The position numbers and the translations under genes are program-made. Below the pieces are notes generated by a model that saw nothing but the letters and a program-made list of their open reading frames with translations, was not told the origin of the DNA and ran no database searches. From contig SICL01000002.1 of the NCBI GenBank assembly GCA_009691445.1, forward strand, positions 63 to 64,062: a DNA stretch of 64,000 nucleotides, given 5' to 3'. Positions 1-63,220 of the stretch are shown here, one piece after another. This DNA is from Candidatus Taenariivivens baikalensis (GTDB lineage Bacteria; Omnitrophota; Omnitrophia; Omnitrophales; Aquincolibacteriaceae). The stretch's first letter is position 1. Each line of letters begins with the position of its first letter.

Positions 1-424
1 TGATGCCAAAACGTTTTCCCGCATCCATATCAGAAATTTTATCGCCGATAAAACAAGTCTCCGTCTTATCAAATTCAAGCCCTGAAGTTGCTTCCAGGAA
101 AAGCCCAATTTCTGGCTTGCGGCATTTGCAGCCCGCGCTTTTTCCGTGGTGGCAGTAATGAGACGAACGGAAGCGAATCTTATTTTGGCGGAAGACCTCG
201 ATCATGTTCCGGTCGATTCTTTCGAGTTCGGACGCGGGATAAATCGAGTCTCCCACTCCGGCCTGATTTGAAATCACAATAATTTCGTATCCGGCATCCG
301 AAAGGCTCTTCAGACCATCCAGAGCACCCTCTTCAAAGCGAAAATCTTCCCAGCGTTTAATGTAATCCCCAATTGGATCCACATTAATAACACCGTCTCG
401 GTCCACAAAAATAATTTTTTCCAT
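1..424 (-). CDS. gmhB: D-glycero-D-manno-heptose 1,7-bisphosphate phosphatase (HAD family), C-terminus truncated at window start
   Basis: Reverse translation from ATG at complement(422-424) gives MEKIIFVDRDGVINVDPIGDYIKRWEDFRFEEGALDGLKSLSDAGYEIIVISNQAGV..., the classic GmhB/HAD-IIIA DxDGV motif and GmhB-like body. The frame stays open to position 1. Confidence 0.8.
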   Translation of the reverse strand, partial: MEKIIFVDRDGVINVDPIGDYIKRWEDFRFEEGALDGLKSLSDAGYEIIVISNQAGVGDSIYPASELERIDRNMIEVFRQNKIRFRSSHYCHHGKSAGCKCRKPEIGLFLEATSGLEFDKTETCFIGDKISDMDAGKRFGI

Positions 425-434
425 ATTCTTTGAT

Positions 435-493
435 GAGATTGCTTCGTCGGATGACCTCATCGCAATGACGTCATTGCGAGCAAGGCGATCTCG
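435..493. repeat. Intergenic palindromic repeat element, copy A. Perfect 20-bp palindrome TCGCAATGACGTCATTGCGA at 460-479, preceded by GAGATTGCTTCG.
   Basis: Read directly in sequence. It shares a GTCATTGCGAG core and GAGATTGC arm with copies at ~2456-2520, 3997-4110, 7697-7782 and 63100-63220. Confidence 0.6.
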
Positions 494-497
494 TTTT

Positions 498-1646
498 TTA
501 GTGAGGCTTATAAAATTTTTGAATATGATCACAGACCTGATTAACCTCTTCGAAGGTCATTTCCGGAAAAAGAGGCAGAGAAACGATTTCACGCGTGGTT
601 TGAAGGGTCGCGGGAAGATCCCAGGATTTTTTGCTTTGTTTCCGGTAAAAAGGTTGAAGATGAACCGGAGTTTTGTAGTGCACGAGTGTGGTCACACCCT
701 GCCGGCTGAGGTAATCTCGGAGCGTCTCGCGTTTTCCTTGAGGAATTCTTGCGACCATCAGGTGATAAGCTGACCCGGCATCAGAAACTTCTTCCGGGAA
801 AATCACGGGAGTATTTTTCAGATTTTTCCGGTAATGCTGTGCCAGCTCATAACGCTTGCGGTTAAAATCATCCAGATGCTTGAGTTTAATCTCTAGAACG
901 CAAGCTTGGAGTTCATCTAGTCGACTGGTCCATCCGAGTTCTGAATGATCCGCATGAAAACTAATATGGCCTAAGTTACGCAAAGTAAGGATTTTTTTTG
1001 CCAGGGTCGCGGAGTTTGTTACGACCATTCCTCCGTCGCCGTAAGCTCCAAGATTTTTTGTCGGATAAAAACTGAAACATCCAAAATCACCAAAGGTGCC
1101 GGCCTTTTTACCCTTCCAGGACGCACCGTGAGCCTGAGCGACGTCTTCGACAACTTTCAGTTTATGTTTGCGGGCAATTTTCATAATGGCCGTCATGTTG
1201 GCGGCTTGTCCGTATAAGTGAACCGGAAGAATAGCCTTAGTTTTTGGGGTGATAGCCTTTTCGATCAGATCGGGATTGATGCAAAATGTTTTCGGATCAA
1301 TATCCACAAAAACAGGTTCCGCACCGTGATGCATAAACCCAAATACAGAGGCCGTGTAAGTATAAGAAGGAACAATGACCTGATCCCCTTTTCCGATGCC
1401 GAGTGCACGGAAGGCTAGGATGAGAGCGTCGGTTCCCGATGCGACGCCAATCGCATGTTTGACGCCGAGATATTTCGCGAAAGACTTCTCAAAGGTCTGA
1501 ACTTTTGAACCAAGAACGAACTGGCCAGATTCAAGCACACCATTAATTTCCTGGCGGATCTCTTTTTCAAGAGAACGGAATTGGCGCTTGAGATCAAAAT
1601 AAGGAATTTGGGTGGAGGATTGATTCAGGGCCAGCGACTTGATCAT
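498..1646 (-). CDS. DegT/DnrJ/EryC1/StrS-family PLP-dependent sugar aminotransferase
   Basis: 382-aa ORF. Motifs GVASGTDAL, SFYPTKNLGAYGDGG and the overall DegT architecture are present. It is tightly spaced with the downstream GT2. Confidence 0.85.
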   Translation of the reverse strand: MIKSLALNQSSTQIPYFDLKRQFRSLEKEIRQEINGVLESGQFVLGSKVQTFEKSFAKYLGVKHAIGVASGTDALILAFRALGIGKGDQVIVPSYTYTASVFGFMHHGAEPVFVDIDPKTFCINPDLIEKAITPKTKAILPVHLYGQAANMTAIMKIARKHKLKVVEDVAQAHGASWKGKKAGTFGDFGCFSFYPTKNLGAYGDGGMVVTNSATLAKKILTLRNLGHISFHADHSELGWTSRLDELQACVLEIKLKHLDDFNRKRYELAQHYRKNLKNTPVIFPEEVSDAGSAYHLMVARIPQGKRETLRDYLSRQGVTTLVHYKTPVHLQPFYRKQSKKSWDLPATLQTTREIVSLPLFPEMTFEEVNQVCDHIQKFYKPH

Positions 1647-1649
1647 GGA

Positions 1650-2414
1650 TTATAATTTGACGAGACGCCGTTTCATTTCGCGGTACTTTGCGTAGCTAAA
1701 GAGCTGATAAAGACCGTGAAAGGCCGACATGAGAAATCCCATGAAGCCATGCTTCCATCCCTTTTTAAGGAAATAGTTTTTCAGGAACCGGTCTACGGTT
1801 TTTCTGAGTGAGTTAGCCAGTTTCACCTTGCGTCCGTCTTGAATCCACTTGTCCGCTTCGAGCGTGGTTTCCCGGTTAAATTTTGAAATCCAGTGTTCTA
1901 AACTCTGGCAAGAGTAGTGAAAAATGTCCCCTTTGAGATGTCCACAGGTTCCTTGATAAATTGCGCGCGGATGGACGCGGGCTTCTTCGTAACGAAACTG
2001 TCCTTTGCGAAACAGGCGAGTTTTGGCTGCCGGATAATAACCAGCTCCCTGAATCCATTCGTCGGCAATGAAAGTCCTGATAGGGATAGAGAAGCAAATA
2101 TGGGTGGTACTTCCGGTAATGGTTTGCGTAATTTCCCTGGCAAGTTCGGGAGTGATACGTTCATCGGCATCGAGACTCAAAACCCAGGGTTGGGTGGCCT
2201 GGTCATAGGCATAATTTCTCTGGCGGCCTTCGATATCCATCGCGCGTTGGAAGACTTTGCATCCGTACTGGTTTGCAATTTCACGGGTCTTATCGGTGCT
2301 CATATCGTCGAGGACAACAATTTCCTGGGCCCAACTTGCAGACTTCAAACAGTCTTCAATTCGCTTTTCTTCATTCTTGGCAATAATCACTACAGAGACA
2401 GGTGCTTTTTCCAT
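1650..2414 (-). CDS. Family 2 glycosyltransferase (LPS-core type, WaaE/KdtX-like)
   Basis: 254 aa. N-terminal VSVVIIAKNEEKRIEDCL...VVLDDMSTDKT motif is the GT2 DxD region. It is a paralog of the ORF at 11260-11997. Confidence 0.8.
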   Translation of the reverse strand: MEKAPVSVVIIAKNEEKRIEDCLKSASWAQEIVVLDDMSTDKTREIANQYGCKVFQRAMDIEGRQRNYAYDQATQPWVLSLDADERITPELAREITQTITGSTTHICFSIPIRTFIADEWIQGAGYYPAAKTRLFRKGQFRYEEARVHPRAIYQGTCGHLKGDIFHYSCQSLEHWISKFNRETTLEADKWIQDGRKVKLANSLRKTVDRFLKNYFLKKGWKHGFMGFLMSAFHGLYQLFSYAKYREMKRRLVKL

Positions 2415-2455
2415 AAATTCCTTGGTTGAAGAGGCTTAGAGCGTCTAGCAAAACG

Positions 2456-2520
2456 GTCATCGCAAGCTCCACAGGGCGCGACGATCTCGGGGATTGCTTC
2501 CGCGCTTCACTCGCAATGAC
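2456..2520. repeat. Intergenic palindromic repeat element, copy B (GTCATCGCAAG ... GATCTCGGGGATTGCTTCCG ... CTCGCAATGAC)
   Basis: Imperfect inverted repeat sharing core with copy A. It lies in the 149-bp gap between the GT2 and the sugar phosphotransferase. Confidence 0.5.
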
Positions 2521-2563
2521 AGGATTTTATTAGGTGCCGTAGTTTAATCGATTTTTCTGGATT

Positions 2564-3961
2564 TTAATAGGCATTTTTGAAGGCGAAGAGTGTCATGAAG
2601 AGGATTTCGATATCAAGGACGATCGACCAGTTCTCCATATAATAAAGATCATACTTAATGCGTTCTTCAATGGAGGTGTTGCCGCGATAGCCATTGACCT
2701 GGGCCCAGCCTGTAAGTCCTGATTTGATTTTATGACGGGCCATGTACCGCGGAATTTCGGTGCGAAACTGGTCAATAAAATGCGGACGTTCTGGGCGTGG
2801 TCCGACAAGACTCATATCGCCGTTTAAAACATTAAAGAGTTGCGGCAGTTCATCAATATTCCACCGGCGGAGAAAAGTTCCCATCGAAGTGCGCCGGGTA
2901 TCATCCTTTTTGGCCCAGACCGGCCCGGTTTCCTTTTCCGCATCCATTTTCATGGTGCGAAATTTGATGACTTTGAAAATTTTTTGATCTCTCCCCATTC
3001 TTTCCTGAAAATAAAAAATAGGACCTCCATCCTGAAGCTTAATCAACGCCGTGGTGATGATCCAGATGGGAGACGTGACGAGGAGCATGAAGGATGAAAC
3101 CAGCAGATCAAAAGTTCTCTTGATCACTCGATTCCAGGGGTCGTCCAGAGGCAATTCATTGAATCCAAGCAAGGGAACCGTACTCATATAGGTCACATCC
3201 ACATTCCGTGACATGAGTCCGTAAATGTCCGCACCGATTTTAAAATCAATAAAACGATCTTCGCAAAGAGCGACCAAATCTGCAATTTTTTCCCGGGAAA
3301 GAGTATGGTCCAGCAAAATAACTTCTTGAGGCTGGAGATCTTGAATAAAAGTTTCGCAATGAGGAATGGTTCCAAGAATAGGAATCTCATCCAAATGCTT
3401 TCCGAGATCTTCCACATCCTGAGTCAAAACTCCGATGACTTTTCGGCCGTAGTGTTTATTCGTGTGTGCCCACTCAATGATGTGGCGGGCATTTCGGTTG
3501 GAGCCAATCAGCAGGACGCGGCAGATATCCTTCTGTTGGAGTTTTCGCTGATATTCATACTGGATGAGAAGATAGCGGCCCAAACTCACATAAAGGATGG
3601 AAAAAACCCACAAGGTGATTAGGTAAATTCGGGAGTAAGTTAGCTCACGGTAAAAAAAAGTAACGGCCATTAAAATAATCACAGCAAATGTGACTGCCTT
3701 CACGACTTGAAAAATTTCTTCCACACGGCGTCTTTGATGTTTTTGGGAGTAGAGGCCATAGATGCGGAAAAACCATAAATAGACGGGAATAATGACAACA
3801 AGAGCTTGAAGATAGATTTTCAGGTCCGGGGGGGTTCCGTGGAGCGGAAGAATGCCAAGGTAAAACCGGAAATGATAGGTCGACACAAGGCTGGCGGCAA
3901 TGGCCAGAGAGTCCATCAAGAGACAGAGAAGTGAGAAAAGACGATGTTTATGAGACAACAT
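2564..3961 (-). CDS. Undecaprenyl-phosphate hexose-1-phosphate transferase (bacterial sugar transferase, WbaP/WcaJ-type initiating enzyme)
   Basis: 465 aa. N-terminal TM segments plus C-terminal Bac_transf domain ([17 protein letters not shown]..., [27 protein letters not shown]). Confidence 0.9.
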
Positions 3962-3996
3962 AAGTTTAATTGACCGTTAGCAAAATTTGAATGGTA

Positions 3997-4110
3997 GAGA
4001 TTGCTTACGGATCCCCGCCTCTGGCGGAGTCGCCAATCCCTTTGGACTGCTCTCAATGACTGTCATTGCGAGTCCTTCGTCTGTCATCCTGGGCAGAGCG
4101 AAGGATCTCA
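3997..4110. repeat. Intergenic palindromic repeat element, copy C (GAGATTGCTTACGG ... CAATGACTGTCATTGCGAG ... CGAAGGATCTC)
   Basis: Same core and arm motifs as copies A/B. It lies in the 146-bp gap upstream of the phosphotransferase. Confidence 0.5.
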
Positions 4111-5199
4111 GGATAAACTCCGCGAAGCCATCTCGTTTGTGACACACTCTTTGATTCGTTGTTTAAAGAATTCTTTGCTAAAGGATTCTACCTGAGATGG
4201 GATCTGGGTTCGATCAAAATTTTCACCTTCGAATTCCAGGATGGCTTTACGTAAAGCTTCTTTGGTTTGACCGGAGAAAAAAAGACCGGTTTTCACGCTT
4301 TCTAAAGCCCCGCCCTCTTTCAGAGCAATCACCGGAGTGCCGCAGGCCTGGGCCTCAAGCGGTACAATCCCGAAATCCTCATTGGTTGGGAAAATAAGCG
4401 CCTTAGCCTGCGAATAGATTTTAGAAAGCTCTTGATTAGAGACCGAGCCAAGAAATGAAATGCGGTCGGTCTTGCGCAGCTGCTTGTACCTTTTCTCCAT
4501 CGGGCCGGAACCCACGATTAAAAGTTTTCGATCAAGGGCATTAAAGGTCTCAATAACAAGATCAACTTTCTTATAAGGAACGAACGCTGAAACGACTAAA
4601 TAGAAATCGCCATCGTGAGGACCTGCTTGATAGGCATTCGTATCAAGCGGAGGATGAATGACCTTGGCTTCCCGTCCGTAGAAATTCTTAATACGGGAAC
4701 GCACGTTCTCTGAATTTGCAATAAACAAACTCACCTTTTTATTGGATTCCAGATCCCAGATTCGAAGCGGCCTAAGGAGGAGTTTGATGAACGGTTTGAT
4801 CCAAAAGGGAAAATTTCCGAAATAATCCTTTTCAAATCCCCAAAGATAACGCATCGGCGTGTGAATATACGAAACGTGAAAAGCCTTGGGTGGAATACGA
4901 ATCCCTTTGGCAACGCAGTGAGAGGATGAGAGCACGAGATCCGTGTCCGGGTCGATTTCAATTTTTTGGATCATGGCCGGGAGAATGGGAAGCAGCCAAC
5001 GGTAGAAACGTTTAATCCCAGGAACGCACTGGAGCGGACTTGCTTTAATTTTCATGCGCTGGAGCGGCGGGCTTAGTTTGTCACGGTCATAAAAGAGCGT
5101 ATGAATCACGGCATCGGGATAAAGCTCGGAGAAGGCTTCCAAAACTTTTTCACCGCCGCGCATGTGAAACAGCCAATCGTGGACGAGCGCGATTTTCAT
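4108..5199 (-). CDS. Family 4 glycosyltransferase (GT-B, retaining)
   Basis: 363 aa. C-terminal EX7E-type region (FPTNEDFGIVPLEAQACGTPVIA). 4-bp overlap with the next GT4. Confidence 0.85.
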   Translation of the reverse strand: MKIALVHDWLFHMRGGEKVLEAFSELYPDAVIHTLFYDRDKLSPPLQRMKIKASPLQCVPGIKRFYRWLLPILPAMIQKIEIDPDTDLVLSSSHCVAKGIRIPPKAFHVSYIHTPMRYLWGFEKDYFGNFPFWIKPFIKLLLRPLRIWDLESNKKVSLFIANSENVRSRIKNFYGREAKVIHPPLDTNAYQAGPHDGDFYLVVSAFVPYKKVDLVIETFNALDRKLLIVGSGPMEKRYKQLRKTDRISFLGSVSNQELSKIYSQAKALIFPTNEDFGIVPLEAQACGTPVIALKEGGALESVKTGLFFSGQTKEALRKAILEFEGENFDRTQIPSQVESFSKEFFKQRIKECVTNEMASRSLS

Positions 5200-6308
5200 G
5201 ACCGCCTCAAGACTTTCTCATAAACCGCAAAGGTTTGTTCTGCCGTCTTGTTCCAATGAAATCGGCGCACATTCTCTTTCCCCTTTTCGATGAGCTGTTG
5301 GCGGATAGTTTCTGATCCTTCAATTTCCATGAGAGCGTTCTGGAGCTGAACAGAGTTGGAGGATTCGATCAGATAAGCCCCCTCTCCCGCAACCTCCGGG
5401 ATCGAAGAGTTCCGGCACGCAATCACCGGAGTTTGGCTTGCCATGGCTTCCAGTAACGTAAGGCCAAAGCCTTCGTAAAGTGACGGATGAATCAGGGCCT
5501 TGGCCATTTGGTAGAAAATGGGCAGCTCTGAATACTCCACACGTTCAATGTGATGGAGAAGCCCGCGGGACTTAAGGGAATTTAGAAGCTGGGTCAACTC
5601 CGGGTCTTTAAGATCATCCTTCCCGACAAGAACCAGAGCTGCCTCGGTCTTTTTTTGATCCCGGAGATCTGTAAAGGTGCGGAGAAGCCAGGGAAGATTT
5701 TTGTGAAGTTTGAAGGACCCGACATAAAGAAAAAAAGAATCCGGAAGCCGGTATTTTTCTTTCAAATTTATTTTTTGATCATTGTCAACCAAAACGGAAA
5801 ATCGTTCATCAACACCCTCATAGGTCACGGTGATCTTTCGAGGGTCCGCTTGAAAATAGCGGATAAGATCAGATTGAGTATGTTCGGACACGGTTAAAAT
5901 ATGATCCGAATATTTCACGGCCCGTGCAAGCATCAGGCCGGCATAAAATTCCTGAGTTTTGGAAAGGAAAGATTTGCGGAAAACCCAGTGGATAATGTCA
6001 TGAATGGTTACCACTAATTTAGTTTTTCCTTTAAAAAATGGAATATTGTAATGCGGAGAATGCCAGAGCCGGCACTCAGAAACATTTTTTGAGTACTCCC
6101 ATTGCTCGTTCAGAGAATAGATGGGGGCGCGGAAAGGACGGTGCGCAGGAGCGGCTTGTGTGCAGGGACGCTCAGGAGATTCATACAAGGCGACTTGCAA
6201 GGATTGATCTTTGGCTGATTGAAGCACGCCCGGAAGAATCTGCCGCACATAAGTACCGATGCCTGTGTGCTGAATCATGCGAACATCAATGCCAATATCC
6301 CATTTCAT
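5196..6308 (-). CDS. Family 4 glycosyltransferase
   Basis: 370 aa. SLYEGFGLTLLEAMASQTPVIA motif. ATGA overlap with the upstream GT9 gene. Confidence 0.85.
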   Translation of the reverse strand: MKWDIGIDVRMIQHTGIGTYVRQILPGVLQSAKDQSLQVALYESPERPCTQAAPAHRPFRAPIYSLNEQWEYSKNVSECRLWHSPHYNIPFFKGKTKLVVTIHDIIHWVFRKSFLSKTQEFYAGLMLARAVKYSDHILTVSEHTQSDLIRYFQADPRKITVTYEGVDERFSVLVDNDQKINLKEKYRLPDSFFLYVGSFKLHKNLPWLLRTFTDLRDQKKTEAALVLVGKDDLKDPELTQLLNSLKSRGLLHHIERVEYSELPIFYQMAKALIHPSLYEGFGLTLLEAMASQTPVIACRNSSIPEVAGEGAYLIESSNSVQLQNALMEIEGSETIRQQLIEKGKENVRRFHWNKTAEQTFAVYEKVLRRS

Positions 6309-7480
6309 TTTTTTGCGCCTTGGTTTTGTTCGAGGAGCGCTTGCTCAACGGCTTTGTAAACTTCTTCCGGATCAATTTTGTTCATGCAATCATGATGGAT
6401 CAAAGGACACTCCCTTGATTCGCACGGAGAACACGGAACTGGATGCGTGAGGAGTGTCATGTGATTCGACCAGGGTTTCCAAATGTCCTGATTGTTTGCT
6501 CCGCTGAAAAGGATCACGAGCGGTAATCCCTGGAGCGCCGCCAGGTGGGAAGGACCTGAGTCCTGACCGATAAAGAGATCTGCGTGATTAAGTAAAACCG
6601 GAAGTTCTTCCAGGTTTGTCATTCCCCTCAAGTCGATCATTTCTGATGCTGGAAAGGAAGAAAAATCGGCCGAGGATTTTTCCGCCTGCGTTCCGATCAA
6701 AATTAATTTCCCCAATCGATGCTCCAGGATTTTTTTGATGAGAGAAGAAAAATGTTTATGAGGCCACTGTTTTGAAGGATACCCGGCTCCGGGATGAATC
6801 ACAATCCGTTTCATTCCGGGCTTAAAAAAAGCTGGAGGGATTTTCCCAAGAAGATCTTTTCTCTCTCCCCACGCATAAGAAAAAGAATGTCGATCTGTCG
6901 GGGCCTCGATACCCATGGATTTTAAAAGCTGGAAATTGACTTCCGTTTGATGGGCTTTGAAGTCATATCGAGGAGAATGTGTGAGCCAAAAGCTTCCCCC
7001 GGTGAGACCATAACCGACGCGGATCGGGATGAGAGCCTCTTTCATGAGCCAGATATTTCGAATGTCACCCCGAAAGTCAATGGCAAGATCATAGTGGTTT
7101 CTTCGCAGTTGATTTAGGATTTGTTTTGCTTCTCGCCACATCTCCCCGGAACCTGATTTCGAGAACCAATGATGGACAAAGGGAATGGTGCGGTGAATGC
7201 CGGTAATCTTTTGTCCAAGGCTGGCGCATTCGGCGGCGACTAGCAAATCAACCGTTGAGTCAGGAAAGGATTTTTTGACCAGGGATAGGGCGGGAGCTGT
7301 CAGAAGAAGATCTCCCAGCTGATCGTTACGAATCAGGAGGATATTTTTAATTTTTTTTGGATCAAACCTTCTCGGTTGAAAGAAGAGGCGTCCGTATATC
7401 AAAGATCCCGCAAGATCAAAAAGGAAAACACCCAGACGGCGATACCACGCCTTGTAGCGATACTGCGAAAACCATTTCAC
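6305..7480 (-). CDS. Family 9 glycosyltransferase (ADP-heptose:LPS heptosyltransferase-like)
   Basis: 391 aa. N-terminal ILLIRNDQLGDLLLTAPAL motif is typical of RfaC/RfaF heptosyltransferases. Co-occurs with gmhB in the window. Confidence 0.8.
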   Translation of the reverse strand: MKWFSQYRYKAWYRRLGVFLFDLAGSLIYGRLFFQPRRFDPKKIKNILLIRNDQLGDLLLTAPALSLVKKSFPDSTVDLLVAAECASLGQKITGIHRTIPFVHHWFSKSGSGEMWREAKQILNQLRRNHYDLAIDFRGDIRNIWLMKEALIPIRVGYGLTGGSFWLTHSPRYDFKAHQTEVNFQLLKSMGIEAPTDRHSFSYAWGERKDLLGKIPPAFFKPGMKRIVIHPGAGYPSKQWPHKHFSSLIKKILEHRLGKLILIGTQAEKSSADFSSFPASEMIDLRGMTNLEELPVLLNHADLFIGQDSGPSHLAALQGLPLVILFSGANNQDIWKPWSNHMTLLTHPVPCSPCESRECPLIHHDCMNKIDPEEVYKAVEQALLEQNQGAKK

Positions 7481-7516
7481 GAATCTTTCTCCCCCTTCGT
7501 TGGAGGAGGTATTCTA

Positions 7517-7675
7517 TCAGAAGAGCGTATAAATGAAAGGCGCGACCGGGGTGCTTTGGGTCAAGACGATCAGGATCCCTAGGAGCAGGAAAACGATTAC
7601 GATCGGGGTGAGCCACCACTTTTTACGGATTTTGAGGAAATCCCAGAATTCTTTCAGGATGGATAGTTTGCCCAT
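7517..7675 (-). CDS. Small single-TM protein, SxtK/DUF5989-like (carbamoyltransferase-associated)
   Basis: The ORF track gives 80 aa. The likely true start is MGKLSILKEFWDFLKIRKKWWLTPIVIVFLLLGILIVL... (about 52 aa). Size, the charged N-terminus followed by one TM helix, and position after an SxtJ-like gene and a carbamoyltransferase fit the sxtI-J-K arrangement. Confidence 0.55.
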   Translation of the reverse strand: MGKLSILKEFWDFLKIRKKWWLTPIVIVFLLLGILIVLTQSTPVAPFIYTLF

Positions 7676-7696
7676 ATTTTCTCTTCTCCTTATCAA

Positions 7697-7782
7697 GTCA
7701 TTGCGCGGGAACAAAGCGACCGAAGCAATCTCACAGTTTGAGATTGCCACGCCCGTCAAAAAGCAGACGGACTCGCAACGAC
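7697..7782. repeat. Intergenic palindromic repeat element, copy D (GTCATTGCGCGG ... CGAAGCAATCTC-acagttt-GAGATTGC hairpin ... ACTCGCAACGAC)
   Basis: Stem GCAATCTC/GAGATTGC with a 7-nt loop read directly. It shares motifs with copies A-C and E. Confidence 0.55.
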
Positions 7783-7795
7783 TAATACTATTTCG

Positions 7796-8212
7796 TTAAT
7801 ATTGAGTTTCGCAGCTTTTTTGAGGATCTTTCTTTGGCTTCGGGATCCAATAACTATCCGTGGGCTTTTTGAATTTAAAATCCAAAAACTCTTTCCCGGT
7901 TAAACGGGCAATCATAGCTATCGGTGTGATTCCTGAAAAGTAAAGTAGGCCCAGGACAGCAGGAGCAACGACTGCACCGAGAAGGAGGCCAAAGGCCATC
8001 CAGGCGATATAGATTTGTTTTAAAGATTTTGGAAGAAGCAGACCGAGTAAGACCAAAGGAACTCCGATGCCAAAGAAGACGGGAAAATGCGGTTTTCCAC
8101 GCCAAAGCATCAGGGCTCCAAGCGCCATAAAAATCCCACCGACCATCCAGCCGAAGGTTTTAAGTTCCTTCTCTCCGCTTTTAATCTGTTTGATTTCTTC
8201 AAGTAGTTTCAT
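7796..8212 (-). CDS. SxtJ-like membrane protein (carbamoyltransferase-associated)
   Basis: 138 aa with two to three hydrophobic segments. It sits immediately downstream of the carbamoyltransferase in the same orientation, as in sxtI-sxtJ-sxtK. Confidence 0.5.
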   Translation of the reverse strand: MKLLEEIKQIKSGEKELKTFGWMVGGIFMALGALMLWRGKPHFPVFFGIGVPLVLLGLLLPKSLKQIYIAWMAFGLLLGAVVAPAVLGLLYFSGITPIAMIARLTGKEFLDFKFKKPTDSYWIPKPKKDPQKSCETQY

Positions 8213-8214
8213 GA

Positions 8215-10032
8215 TTAATCCAGCACAAATTCTTTTTTCCAGTTCGTGTCTTTGTCCAAGGGCTTTTGCTCTTTTTTATCCAGGATATAATTTCCCAAGA
8301 CCAGATAATCCATATCCGTGCGCATAAAACATCGGAACGCATCTTCCGGAGAGCAAACCAGCGGTTCTCCGCGGACATTAAAAGACGTATTGATGATCGT
8401 GGCGCAGCCGTGGCGGTCACGAAGCTCCCGGATGGTTTCGTAGTAGGCCGGGCTTGTTTCATGCGAAACGGTTTGGACCCGGGCTGAATAATCCACATGA
8501 GTGACGGCAGGAATCGTGGAACGGATGGCGTTCAGTTTTTGAATTCCAAAAAGTTGTTCTTCCGTTTCTGTCATGGCGCGGCGGATATCTTTTTTTATGG
8601 GAGCGACCAGAAGCATGTAAGGGCTTTCATGGGTCAGTTCAAAATAATCCGCGCAGTTCTCTTCAAGAACGCTGGGTGCAAAGGGGCGAAAGCTTTCGCG
8701 GAATTTGATTTTGACATTCATCGTCTCCTGCATTTTGGGAGAGCGCGCATCACCGATGATTGAACGCGCTCCCAATGCGCGCGGCCCAAATTCCATGCGT
8801 CCATGAAACCAGCCAATGACTTTTTCTTCTGCGATAAGATCCGCCACCGTTTTCGGGAGTTCTTGTGCGGAGCACTTTTTGTAAGGGATTTTTTTTTCTT
8901 CCAGAAATATTTTGATCTCGTCATCTGTAAAAATTGGGCCGAGGTAGGAGCCTCGCATAAAATCCTTTTTGTTTTCTGGATGCCGCGGTTTATCGAGATA
9001 TTGATGCCAGGCATAAAGAGCTGCACCAAGGGCTCCTCCGGCGTCCCCGGCTGCGGGTTGAATCCAGACACTCTCAAAAGGGCCTTCGCGGAGAATGCGG
9101 CCGTTGGCAACACAATTCAGGGCGACTCCGCCGGAAAGACAGAGATTTTTCATCCCGGTTACTTTGTGAATGTGGCGTGAAATGCACAGCATTACTTCTT
9201 CGGTGACATCTTGGATGGATCGGGCAATATCCATATCCTTTTGGGTGATGAGAGACTCAGGTTTGCGCGGAGGTCCGCCAAAGAGACGGTGGAAGTGATG
9301 ATTCGTCATGGTCAGGCCTGCTGGGTAATTGAAATATTTTAAATTCAGATGAAACGAACCGTCCTCTTTTAAATCCAGCAGTTCATTCAAAATGAGATCC
9401 TTGTATTTTGGAATTCCGTACGGGGCAAGCCCCATTAATTTATATTCTCCGGAATTAACTCTAAATCCTGCGTAGTAGGTGAACGCTGAGTAAAGAAGCC
9501 CGAGCGAATGCGGAAAGCGGATTTCATTCAGGATTTCCATATGATTCCCCTGCCCGATCCCAAAACTGGTCGTGGCCCATTCCCCAACTCCGTCTGCGGT
9601 GATAAAGGCCGCGTTTTCATAGGGCGAGGCATAGAAGGCGGACGCGGCATGAGACTCATGATGTTCGGGGAAAATAATTTTTCCGGCAAACCCGAGTTTT
9701 TCTCCGATGATGTCCTTGATCCACAGCTTTTCCTTGAGCCAGACCGGCATGGCTTTGATGAAAGAGAAAAGTCCCGCGGGAGCGTAGCTTAGATAAGTTT
9801 CCAGAAGGCGTTCAAATTTAACAAAAGGTTTTTCGTAGAAGGCAACGATGTCGAGGTCTTTGGCTTGAATCCCCCCTTCCTTCAGGCAGTATTCAATCGC
9901 GCGTTCGGGAAAGGCTGCGTCATGTTTTTTCCGGGTAAAGCGTTCTTCCTGCGCCGCCGCAATAATTTTTCCGTCCACGACCAAACACGCAGCCGCGTCA
10001 TGATAAAAAGCTGAAATTCCAAGGATGTTCAT
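8215..10032 (-). CDS. Carbamoyltransferase, NodU/CmcH/SxtI family (O-carbamoylation of a sugar)
   Basis: 605 aa. The N-terminal MNILGISAFYHDAAACLVVDGKIIAAAQEERFTRKKHD is the hallmark Kae1/YgjD-like carbamoyltransferase N-domain. It has a C-terminal YrdC-like half. Confidence 0.9.
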   Translation of the reverse strand: MNILGISAFYHDAAACLVVDGKIIAAAQEERFTRKKHDAAFPERAIEYCLKEGGIQAKDLDIVAFYEKPFVKFERLLETYLSYAPAGLFSFIKAMPVWLKEKLWIKDIIGEKLGFAGKIIFPEHHESHAASAFYASPYENAAFITADGVGEWATTSFGIGQGNHMEILNEIRFPHSLGLLYSAFTYYAGFRVNSGEYKLMGLAPYGIPKYKDLILNELLDLKEDGSFHLNLKYFNYPAGLTMTNHHFHRLFGGPPRKPESLITQKDMDIARSIQDVTEEVMLCISRHIHKVTGMKNLCLSGGVALNCVANGRILREGPFESVWIQPAAGDAGGALGAALYAWHQYLDKPRHPENKKDFMRGSYLGPIFTDDEIKIFLEEKKIPYKKCSAQELPKTVADLIAEEKVIGWFHGRMEFGPRALGARSIIGDARSPKMQETMNVKIKFRESFRPFAPSVLEENCADYFELTHESPYMLLVAPIKKDIRRAMTETEEQLFGIQKLNAIRSTIPAVTHVDYSARVQTVSHETSPAYYETIRELRDRHGCATIINTSFNVRGEPLVCSPEDAFRCFMRTDMDYLVLGNYILDKKEQKPLDKDTNWKKEFVLD

Positions 10033-19261: not shown

Positions 19262-19741
19262 ACGGACATACTAGTTTTTTTTACCGGAACAATTGTTAAA
19301 AAACTTTTTGTCATATCCATTATCAATGAGATCATAACATAGGATGCCACGATACCCATGAGGGGTTCAAGAGAAAAAACTGTGATTTTCCGTCAAATCC
19401 GCTTGAAAGCAGGACCTTTTTTGAGGTCATTGGGATACGCTGGCGGACTATCAGAATGGACGCATAATTTCCCTTTACTTCCCCAAACCATAAATGTAGT
19501 CTTCCCTGTCAAAGTTGTGCGGAATTTGAGATTGCTCATGGGCGCATTTTTATGTATATTCTTGCTGAACCTATGAGGAAATATCGGGTTCATTCGCATT
19601 CTAAATCCCGCAAAAAAAATTCAGGGATGACACCACACAAAACTCAGTGACCCAAAAGCATTTATAGCGGCTCATGAAATCCATCTGGAAATAATCCAAA
19701 GCTTGTGTCCCGTCTAAAAACTTGAAATACGGATGTGAAAA
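19262..19741. promoter_or_regulatory. 480-bp divergent intergenic region (probable promoters for the minus operon ending at 19261 and the plus CDP-sugar operon starting at 19742)
   Basis: Largest non-coding gap in the window. It is flanked by divergent operon starts, is AT-rich, and contains degenerate copies of the GAGATTGC/GTCATTG repeat motifs (around 19420 and 19526). Confidence 0.45.
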
Positions 19742-57278: not shown

Positions 57279-57512
57279 TTAATCTTCGTCATGGATCCAT
57301 CGCCGGGCTTTGTTGTAAGCAATCCCGACTTTATTTTCCAATTTGGGTGAAAGGATACGTAAAAGTTCTTTTCCCATAATGCGGTATTGTTTTCCCACTT
57401 TAGCGGAGCGAATCAGGCCTTTTTTAATCATGCGCGCAAGTGTGCTGGTACTGACTTTGAGGATTTCTTCAGTTTCGGCTAAGGTATATACTTCGTTTTC
57501 TCTAATTTCCAT
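57279..57512 (-). CDS. Helix-turn-helix DNA-binding protein, excisionase/MerR-like (HTH_17) family
   Basis: The start MEIRENEVYTLAETEEILKVSTSTLARMIKKGLIRSAKVGKQYRI is about 77 aa. This is a classic excisionase-family HTH. Confidence 0.7.
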   Translation of the reverse strand: MEIRENEVYTLAETEEILKVSTSTLARMIKKGLIRSAKVGKQYRIMGKELLRILSPKLENKVGIAYNKARRWIHDED

Positions 57513-57617
57513 AGGTGCTCCATGTGGTAAGGTGCCACATAGTACCATTAGCCCTATTTAAGTGTCAATACCTGTCAAAATATAACATCAAGAGAGAGCA
57601 GGTAAATAGCCGTCCCA

Positions 57618-63099: not shown

Positions 63100-63220
63100 A
63101 CCACTCGGTACAGTCATTGCGAGTCCCGCGCCTTGGCGGAGACGCGGCAATCCCTGGGCACAACCCGATATTGCTCTCGCTGCGGCTCGCACCAACGGTT
63201 GAGAGTTTTCTCGCAATACC
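63100..63220. repeat. Intergenic palindromic repeat element, copy E (GTCATTGCGAG ... GCGGCAATCCC ... TCTCGCAATACC)
   Basis: Same core motif as copies A-D. It lies in the 197-bp gap between the Rieske gene and the terminal membrane-protein gene. Confidence 0.5.

Follow-up and report, generated by a model that had tools for sequence, protein, structure and literature searches.

The window analysed here is a stretch of 64,000 nucleotides from Candidatus Taenariivivens baikalensis (phylum Omnitrophota; contig SICL01000002.1, positions 63 to 64,062 of the forward strand), and its subject is a family of short, oriented hairpin repeats that lie in five of the gaps between its genes. Positions are counted from the first letter of the window. 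Most of the repeats lie in a cell-surface glycan cluster, in which genes for a carbamoyltransferase, SxtJ, DUF5989, GT9, GT4, GT4 and Bac_transf follow one another, and the genes that flank the five sites are all co-directional and on the minus strand.

The repeat core, GTCATTGCGAG/CTCGCAATGAC with at most one mismatch, occurs eight times in the whole window, where 0.97 matches are expected and none of 100 dinucleotide-preserving shuffles gets to eight. All eight are confined to the gaps at 435-492 (site A), 2456-2520 (B), 3997-4135 (C), 7697-7782 (D) and 63113-63218 (E), the intergenic sites at which a preliminary description of this DNA had placed a repeat family. A covariance model made from the units of unrelated genomes (model R1) finds seven units at E<=0.012 and two marginal ones, all of them at these sites and none elsewhere. 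The degenerate versions that had also been described for 19262-19741 come down to one chance GAGATTGC, and the best match of model R1 there (E=7.9) is noise. This octamer is not significant on its own: there are six in the window against 2.96 expected, a count equalled by 11 of the 100 shuffles.

Each site is more than a single palindrome. The repeat is an oriented unit, GTCATTGCGAG followed by a variable 4-55 nt and then by GCAATCTC, and two units in inverted orientation are found at every one of the five sites. B, D and E have theirs tail-to-tail, whereas at A and C the two abut head-to-head. The perfect 20-bp palindrome that had been reported for the first copy is there, with the halves TCGCAATGAC and GTCATTGCGA at 460-479, and it results from the head-to-head abutment of A-rev and A-fwd. 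The reported 8-bp stem of the fourth copy is confirmed too, GCAATCTC at 7725-7732 pairing with GAGATTGC at 7740-7747. In total the five gaps hold ten or eleven units (Table 1) and none is internal to a gene. The one departure from the claim that the copies keep to non-coding gaps is C-fwd, whose 3′ part (4108-4135) codes for the last eight codons and the stop (..EMASRSLS, then stop) of the GT4 gene 4108-5199(-). The C-termini of homologous GT4 proteins are not conserved at this overlap, and remodelling of the tail by insertion may or may not apply. A generic inverted-repeat finder does not have the units in its top 25, because their arms are short and interrupted. The window copies have no shared inner sequence, so that in a formal sense they fail to align beyond the core, which the preliminary description had proposed as an argument against a family. 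We judge alignment to be the wrong test, since the units keep their ends and, between them, the structure of a hairpin whose sequence varies.

The layout of the unit is YGTC, a 5-bp outer stem (ATTGC/GCAAT), a purine internal loop (GAG facing CGAA, CGTG or CGCG), a variable inner stem-loop and CTC. The structure of the units is under selection. The evidence for this is taken from covariation and not from energy, because the nearest-neighbour z-scores of the window units are weak. We used an alignment, A3, of 60 units from loci that were found independently of the motif. Its proposed structure has the outer stem ATTGC/GCAAT, an internal loop (5′ side GA, 3′ side G-N-R), an inner helix whose first pair joins the G of GAG to a conserved C, and an apical loop. 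In this structure 86.5% of the cells are paired, compared with 75.1% in shuffles. All five inner pairs have changed on both sides, the observed covariation is matched by none of 500 shuffles, and sliding the partners by one to three columns lowers the pairing to 21-54%. As the outer stem of A3 had been selected for complementarity, the outer stem was tested separately, with heads defined blind to their tails. Among 206 heads with a stem other than ATTGC, 98 are then followed by their own exact complement and a C, where a permuted-stem control reaches 17 on average and at most 30 over 1000 trials. The covarying outer-stem types are ATTCT, ATGCT, ATCGC, ATCCT, ATTCC, ATGTT, ACCCT and ACTGC.

The flanks are constrained as well. 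When hairpins are defined by the stem and GAG only, the three positions before them hold G in 84%, T in 85% and C in 82% of cases, and those after the stem C in 86%, then T in 67% and C in 69%; a pyrimidine precedes GTC in 92% of units. Shuffled versions of the inner regions are less stable than the regions themselves (p=2e-11).

Table 1. Hairpin units at the five sites of the window, with their sequence layout, the support for each and remarks on the DNA fold.
Unit	Positions	Strand	Layout	Support	Remarks
A-rev	435..469	-	GTCATTGCGAT-GAGGTCATCCGACGAA-GCAATCTC	model R1 36.4 bits, E=4e-7	outer stem ATTGC/GCAAT perfect, recovered by DNA fold
A-fwd, minimal unit	470..492	+	GTCATTGCGAG-CAAG-GCGATCTC	model R1 22.6 bits, E=0.0014	
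B-fwd, degenerate	2456..2488	+	GTCATCGCAAG...CGATCTC, 4-bp outer stem	model R1 13.0 bits, E=0.38, marginal	position and orientation as expected of the partner of B-rev
B-rev	2490..2520	-	GTCATTGCGAG-TGAAGCGCGGAA-GCAATCCC	model R1 29.5 bits, E=2.5e-5	outer stem perfect
C-rev, long unit	3997..4060	-	GTCATTGAGAG...(CCGCC-AGA-GGCGG inner hairpin)...GCAATCTC	model R1 9.4 bits, E=3.1, marginal	head with 1 mismatch, tail exact; weak score due to the 45-nt inner insert; DNA fold z=-1.6
C-fwd	4062..4135	+	GTCATTGCGAG...GCCATCTC	model R1 18.9 bits, E=0.012	holds nested second unit
Nested unit, outer-stem type ATCCT/AGGAT	4083..4109	+	GTCATCCTGGGCAGAGCGAAGGATCTC	stem-complement scan	
D-fwd	7697..7732	+	GTCATTGCGCG-GGAACAAAGCGACCGAA-GCAATCTC	model R1 27.1 bits, E=1e-4	minimum-energy DNA structure equals centroid, outer stem included
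D-rev	7740..7782	-	GTCGTTGCGAG-TCCGTCTGCTTTTTGACGGGCGTG-GCAATCTC	model R1 27.2 bits, E=1e-4	7 nt from D-fwd, tail-to-tail; DNA fold with 7-pair inner stem, z=-1.9
E-fwd	63113..63153	+	GTCATTGCGAG-TCCCGCGCCTTGGCGGAGACGCG-GCAATCCC	model R1 29.4 bits, E=2.6e-5	DNA fold -9.7 kcal/mol, z=-1.9
E-rev, decayed	63166..63218	-	head GTATTGCGAG (C lost), tail GCAATATC	sequence reading, motif with 1 mismatch; no model R1 match	12 nt from E-fwd, tail-to-tail; DNA fold pairs head with tail, z=-1.6

The units are spread over much of the bacterial domain. We scanned one genome per species, from a collection of 596 Gb, for the pattern GTCATTGCGAG-N(4-34)-GCAATCTC and obtained at least 120 loci in more than 20 bacterial phyla. 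The groups among the matches listed are Chloroflexota, Planctomycetota, Nitrospirota, Bacteroidota (including the cultured Flavobacterium, Chryseobacterium and Mucilaginibacter), Patescibacteria, Bacillota (Oscillospiraceae, Sporomusa), Alpha-, Gamma- and Deltaproteobacteria, Campylobacterales, Omnitrophota, Atribacteria, Zixibacteria, Armatimonadota, Gemmatimonadales, Latescibacterota and others. Cultured strains among the carriers are Flavobacterium defluvii DSM 17963, Sporomusa malonica DSM 5090 and Litorivivens lipolytica CECT 8654. The exact pattern is also present in contigs that IMG/VR lists as viral (L205-L284 among the matches listed), which may be phage genomes or the host flanks of predicted prophages. 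The raw count, a lower bound, does not by itself exceed chance, as about 130 matches are expected in 596 Gb at equal base frequencies. We take the matches to be real because many of those listed are directly paired with an inverted partner, because model R1 finds 228 units at E<=0.01 in the 711 kb of the listed loci, and because the inner parts fold better than shuffles, as described above.

At some of these loci the units enclose a gene. Four among the at least 120 motif loci carry a small GIY-YIG gene, which is exactly bracketed by inverted units in two of them (L035 and L033) and by units with the outer stems ATTCT and ATCCT in another, L081. The ATCCT stem is that of the nested unit at 4083-4109 of the window and it flanks the gene in metagenome loci too. 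A reverse search with an alignment of three of the GIY-YIG proteins gave 80 metagenomic loci, found by protein alone. The 200 nt before the gene contain a unit in 58 of 70 loci and the 200 nt after it in 64 of 72; there are units on both sides in 50. The dominant layout is a forward unit, 30-60 nt, the gene and, 4-16 nt after its stop codon, a reverse unit; unit density is 7.7 per kb by the gene against 1.07 per kb at more than 300 nt from it. The bracketed proteins, of about 90-97 aa, consist of a single GIY-YIG domain (PF01541 in Pfam). NCBIfam has no specific family for them, and the best solved structure by sequence is that of a UPF0213 protein (E=1.8e-5).

Such a pairing of hairpins and nuclease has been described by Chenal et al. 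(Nat Commun 2025; PMC11893778). The Neisseria repeats named NTS (CGTCATTCCCGCGMAVGCGGGAATCYRG, a subset of dRS3) are oriented hairpins that flank ssnA, the gene of a 94-aa single-domain GIY-YIG protein, and related motifs in other bacteria are called Ssn-related motifs (SRM). SsnA binds the hairpin as single-stranded DNA (ssDNA) only, it is inactive on double-stranded DNA, RNA and the reverse strand, and its cut lies upstream of GTC, at a distance of a few nucleotides. Cleavage depends most on the three bases that precede the palindrome and binding on the C just 3′ of it, while the loop is dispensable and can be extended. In Neisseria the motifs modulate the recombination of incoming DNA, and in N. 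meningitidis the system lowers transformation by DNA that contains NTS. An SsnA homologue is found in 81% of the genomes that have more than 200 SRMs (all PMC11893778). Our literature search found no papers that follow up this work.

The proteins bracketed by our units resemble SsnA over their full length and without gaps. The L081 protein is 52% identical to a 94-aa Neisseria SsnA orthologue (E=2e-32) and the L035 protein 44% (E=2e-26), which on sequence grounds makes both of them SsnA homologues by the homology criterion of PMC11893778; for the Ssn protein family as such the criterion is CDD family cd10448. The orthologue carries Y6, Y17 and E64 as in PMC11893778 and is flanked by NTS repeats, and since the alignments to it are gap-free, these positions are aligned in the bracketed proteins. 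It comes from an N. gonorrhoeae chromosome that is mislabelled in a plasmid collection: PLSDB lists this 2.17-Mb molecule (L325, NZ_CP119140.1) as a plasmid, almost unannotated, and the ssnA orthologue at L325 589-873 is among the genes without annotation. Weak tblastn matches of SsnA in the window, one of them adjoining site E at E=0.42, were set aside as noise.

Some of the 80 protein-defined loci have units with continuous stems like those of NTS, e.g. GTCGTTCCCGCGCAAGCGGGAACC in L167, and the units of Novosphingobium have another stem again, GTC-GCCCCGTG...CACGGGGC. The family is therefore a continuum in which constant flanks are combined with a varying stem. A protein search with the NTS-like locus L167 has no Neisseria among its best 120 matches.

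Our best explanation, which we hold with a probability of about 0.75, is that the window repeats are Ssn-related motifs of a 'GAG-type', members of the NTS family of Chenal et al. This identification is supported by the bracketing of SsnA homologues and by the conservation of the flank positions that are critical in PMC11893778. In the window itself GTC stands at the head of eight units; C-rev, D-fwd and D-rev deviate from the consensus head only after GTC. B-fwd begins with GTC too, and E-rev has lost the C. A C directly 3′ of the stem (GCAAT-C or equivalent) is found in 10 of the 11 units, and the decayed E-rev has an A in its place. Judged by their sequence, the window repeats lie inside the concept of the SRM and outside its published operational definition, as a variant with a bipartite stem. 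The published string, HGTCWYN(0-2)YYVSBRHN(0-5)WNVSBRGN(0-2)RNCYNB, is an operational search tool rather than the concept, and it matches only 2 of the 80 ssn loci.

Several points weigh against this identification. The published string has zero matches in the window; the canonical ATTGC, ATTCT and ATCCT units are not matched by it and NTS is. When the hairpin is kept and the sequence of its stem is changed, the Neisseria enzyme is inactive (PMC11893778), so we have to assume that enzyme specificity has diverged together with the stem. Within the 64-kb window there is no ssn gene or remnant of one, and a cognate nuclease of this genome is putative. The DNA folding energies of the window units are unremarkable, with z from +1.1 to -1.9 by a nearest-neighbour model that gives no score to sheared G·A pairs or mini-hairpins. 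Finally, the degenerate units B-fwd, C-rev and E-rev may be inactive, and the presumed action of an Ssn on GAG-type units is argued from homology.

Do the units act as DNA or as RNA? The inner loops are DNA-type rather than RNA-type mini-hairpins and they are strand-asymmetric. On the forward strand, 105 of 435 distinct units contain the motif GC(G/A)NAGC in their inner part; on the reverse complement 4 of 435 do. For comparison, d(GCGAAGC) melts at 76.5 C and the related RNA octamer r(GCGAAAGC) at 39 C (PMC13037366). The preliminary description had considered mRNA stabilisers or attenuators. In an RNA-level reading, hairpins transcribed within polycistronic mRNAs would stabilise upstream segments or attenuate or terminate transcription. 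All sites lie between co-directional operon genes and would be transcribed, and covariation by itself cannot separate RNA from ssDNA. Nevertheless we consider a role at the RNA level improbable. None of the 13 terminator-like sites in the window coincides with a unit and their number is that expected by chance; a terminator and promoter scan shows no relation to the units, at which there are no U-tracts; and Rfam has no match at the gathering threshold over the whole window and none at E<=1 in 1-8400. Every site holds both orientations of a strongly directional motif, and at ssn genes the unit upstream lies in sense orientation and the one downstream in antisense. In RNA, the GNA mini-hairpins with their tandem G·A pairs have a far lower stability, and RNA is not bound by SsnA (PMC11893778). 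Of the functions that had been suggested, a protein-binding site is the best supported.

By homology with SsnA, the system most likely works as follows. A unit would fold into a hairpin when its DNA is single-stranded, and a single-domain GIY-YIG endonuclease of the Ssn family, about 95 aa long, would bind the hairpin so formed on the forward strand alone, the reverse strand, duplex DNA and RNA being no substrates for it. Binding would require the C that immediately follows the stem, and cutting the GTC that immediately precedes it; the cut made by the cognate Ssn would fall in the single strand, a few nucleotides before that GTC on its 5′ side. Two inverted units per site would, as we see it, place one cleavable site on each DNA strand, so that either strand could be cut wherever it is single-stranded. 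With no ssn gene or remnant in the window, all ten or eleven units there are gene-less 'orphan' copies acquired in this lineage. Single-stranded copies of the region, either incoming transforming or conjugative DNA or intermediates of replication and repair, might then be cut into short pieces, by which recombination would be limited or reshaped. The hairpins could also be the footprints of a selfish hairpin-ssn-hairpin element.

Comparison with relatives bears on the origin of the units. Two syntenic loci, L202 and L203, have a carbamoyltransferase that is ~77% identical to that of the window, a protein too conserved for taxonomic placement, and share the gene order given at the outset; L202 additionally has GT2 and HAD genes, the L203 contig ends within Bac_transf, and its DUF5989 is a small unannotated open reading frame (ORF). 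Neither of them has a unit at the corresponding junctions, and in L202 the gaps there measure 0-45 nt. Four junctions that are occupied in the window are thus empty in its relatives, and the units are gains in this lineage. Contig L001, 99.96% identical to the window with no indels, comes from the same population and is for this reason uninformative on the presence or absence of units. The window copies share only their ends, and there is no target-site duplication. Simple copy-and-paste does not account for these gains, and pure site selection does not do so either. At 208 tail-to-tail pairs the lengths of flanking direct repeats equal those of a permuted control.

Units are also found nested in, or stacked on, truncated heads of further units, at 4083-4109 of the window, in L035 (5022-5070) and in L076, L122, L127 and L134. 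The patterns are GTCATTGCGAG..GTCATTGCGAG...GCAATCTC, or an ATCCT-type unit within an ATTGC-type unit. This suggests repeated insertion into or beside existing hairpins.

An alternative with some appeal, though we think it rather unlikely, is that the hairpin pairs are non-autonomous mobile elements, akin to miniature inverted-repeat transposable elements (MITEs), derived from a hairpin-ssn-hairpin transposon whose GIY-YIG nuclease mobilises on ssDNA in the manner of IS200/IS605. In that case the window copies would mark past insertions and would not be sites that serve the host. This overlaps in part with the SRM identification, and the authors of PMC11893778 raised the same idea. Forward unit, gene and reverse unit resemble an element with terminal inverted repeats, and gene-less pairs, which have the same ends as the unit-ssn-unit elements, are predominantly tail-to-tail (93, against 24 head-to-head and 34 tandem). 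The empty junctions of the relatives, the nested units of the window, L035 and L076, and the near-identity of the ends across many phyla and viral contigs point the same way. On the other side there is the lack of target-site duplications, although IS200/IS605 make none either. Ssn is no known transposase, and stand-alone GIY-YIG domains are not known to carry out strand transfer. The window units have no shared inner sequence, unlike the products of recent copy-and-paste, and a pair that gives one cut site per strand leaves the excision of a defined segment unexplained. A bolder form of this idea, and a shade more doubtful in our view, is that GAG-type hairpins and the ~95-aa nuclease make up a self-propagating ssDNA element across phyla and viral contigs, with the window pairs as its non-autonomous progeny in four junctions of the glycan operon. 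If true, the insertion sequences would in effect gain a new class, one whose driving enzyme is of the GIY-YIG kind. A classical MITE is rejected: there are no target-site duplications, and the copies share only head and tail while their inner sequences all differ.

The position of the units within a glycan cluster deserves a comment. The four gaps in the first 8 kb all carry units, compared with one of eight gaps elsewhere in the window (Fisher p=0.01, from a rough gap list), and this clustering resembles that of NTS in Neisseria. The link to glycan genes that had been described is not general: glycosyltransferases make up 2 of the 140 genes next to units in other genomes, which is a background level, and the rest are diverse housekeeping genes. 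We see the lineage-specific gain of sites in a surface-glycan cluster as a parallel to NTS near the surface-antigen genes of Neisseria, within an association that is not general. Junctions of swapped gene cassettes had been proposed too, and this finds a partial echo in the recombination-modulating motifs of Neisseria and in a single case at site A. The hairpin pair there lies at the downstream junction of a gene for a DegT-type aminotransferase, 498-1646(-), that has no counterpart in L202, where GT2 directly abuts the HAD phosphatase gene.

Some further observations concern the repeats at large. Dense tandem or alternating arrays of units occur in L007 (1368-1960), L096 (1535-2277), L074 (371-2204) and L167 (1805-2200). 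The Chloroflexus array has a period of ~50 nt, and in L167, just downstream of ssn, two unit types alternate on opposite strands with a period of 93 nt. These four arrays resemble the mosaics known as bacterial or Neisseria interspersed mosaic elements (BIME, NIME). Two contigs of one metagenome-assembled genome of the Anaerolineales start with near-identical ~110 nt that hold a unit pair (L004 76-118 and L012 75-117), where the repeats probably broke the assembly. Translated units give recurrent spurious peptides, such as CHCEERSDEAIS, SLRGA..SNL (e.g. SLRGAKRRSNL), ..RNDK and VIASEAKQS, in the ORF lists of L007, L013, L020, L033, L081, L096 and L167, either as ORFs or as N-terminal extensions of real genes, e.g. 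of the ssn ORF in L033 and L081. These unit-derived peptides are an annotation artefact that is worth masking. In the literature the repeat sequence itself matched only coincidental primers. Elsewhere in the window, an ORF for a 77-aa protein of the HTH_17 type (excisionase-type helix-turn-helix; 57283-57513(-)) sits in an apparent 354-nt intergenic gap between epimerase and radical-SAM/B12 genes.

The identification as SRMs has several consequences. It would account for a repeat met again and again in the metagenome-assembled genomes of many phyla, together with its recurrent spurious translations. It extends the 2025 discovery of Ssn and NTS to a structurally distinct class of hairpins; since the published search motif misses GAG-type units, surveys built on that motif probably undercount sites. 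The natural units mirror the modularity engineered in vitro, with constant flanks and outer stem and a free inner insert, and this modularity nominates new pairs of enzyme and site for ssDNA tools.

How do the units compare with known systems? They share most with NTS and SRMs. Both are oriented hairpins of 20-50 nt whose stem has YGTC immediately before it and C immediately after it. Both are intergenic and multi-copy, have a variable loop and occur as inverted copies on the two sides of a ~94-aa single-domain GIY-YIG gene, and the flanked proteins share 44-52% identity with Neisseria SsnA. That the inner part varies in nature agrees with the dispensable and extendable loop reported for NTS. 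As Neisseria NTS form local clusters around genes for surface structures, so four of the five window sites are within 8 kb of the glycan cluster. The differences lie in the stem, which is continuous and of 8 bp in NTS, whereas the GAG-type is bipartite, with a 5-bp outer stem, the GAG//CGAA purine loop and a variable inner helix; in the tail, CTC instead of CYRG; in the outer-stem sequence, ATTGC (with the variants ATTCT, ATCCT, ATCGC, ATGCT and others) instead of ATTCCC; and in the absence of a nuclease gene within this window.

The preliminary description had compared the family with MITEs and with repetitive extragenic palindromic (REP) sequences. As a multi-copy family of extragenic palindromic hairpins it deserves the comparison, while the identity with classical MITEs and with the REP system does not stand. 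REPs, arranged in BIMEs, are served by a REP-associated tyrosine transposase (RAYT, or TnpA_REP; Y1 HUH, IS200/IS605-like), and short, imperfect extragenic palindromes, inverted pairs and mosaic arrays such as those of L007, L096 and L074 give the two families a general resemblance, as does the proposed recognition of ssDNA by a small nuclease encoded between two copies. We find it very unlikely that such a transposase serves the present units. The gene that they consistently bracket encodes a GIY-YIG nuclease and not an HUH Y1 enzyme, the conserved 5′ signature is YGTC and not the GTAG of REPs, and the unit sequence is almost identical across phyla, whereas REPs are specific to a lineage or species. 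With the subterminal hairpins of IS200/IS605 themselves, the Ssn hairpins share strand-specific recognition as ssDNA, cleavage outside the hairpin and the absence of target-site duplication. In IS200/IS605 the two ends are unlike and share one strand, while our units are inverted copies; the enzyme family is another one, and transposition is unproven.

Integron attC sites are a further point of comparison, and the idea that the units are recombination sites of this kind, which would mark gene cassettes, is one to which we give next to no credence. Like attC, the hairpins lie between genes, combine a variable sequence with a conserved structure and probably act as folded single strands with strand selectivity; moreover site A adjoins the DegT gene that is absent from L202. 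They lack the core sites, with no RYYYAAC or GTTRRRY on sequence reading where the unit ends are YGTCATTGCGAG and GCAATCTC, as well as the extrahelical-base signature, the integrase and the cassette arrays. What they bracket is ssn, across genomes they lie in housekeeping contexts, and the genes that flank them in the window are orthologous and colinear with those of relatives. The REP and attC identities were accordingly rejected on defining features, the former on bracketed gene and 5′ signature and the latter on core sites.

Lastly, the inner part recalls the d(GCGNAGC) DNA mini-hairpins of Hirao and colleagues, known e.g. from the phage G4 origin (reviewed in PMC13037366). In about a quarter of units the inner loop is exactly this motif, on the forward strand only. 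Here the mini-hairpin is just the apical module of a larger, protein-specific recognition element.

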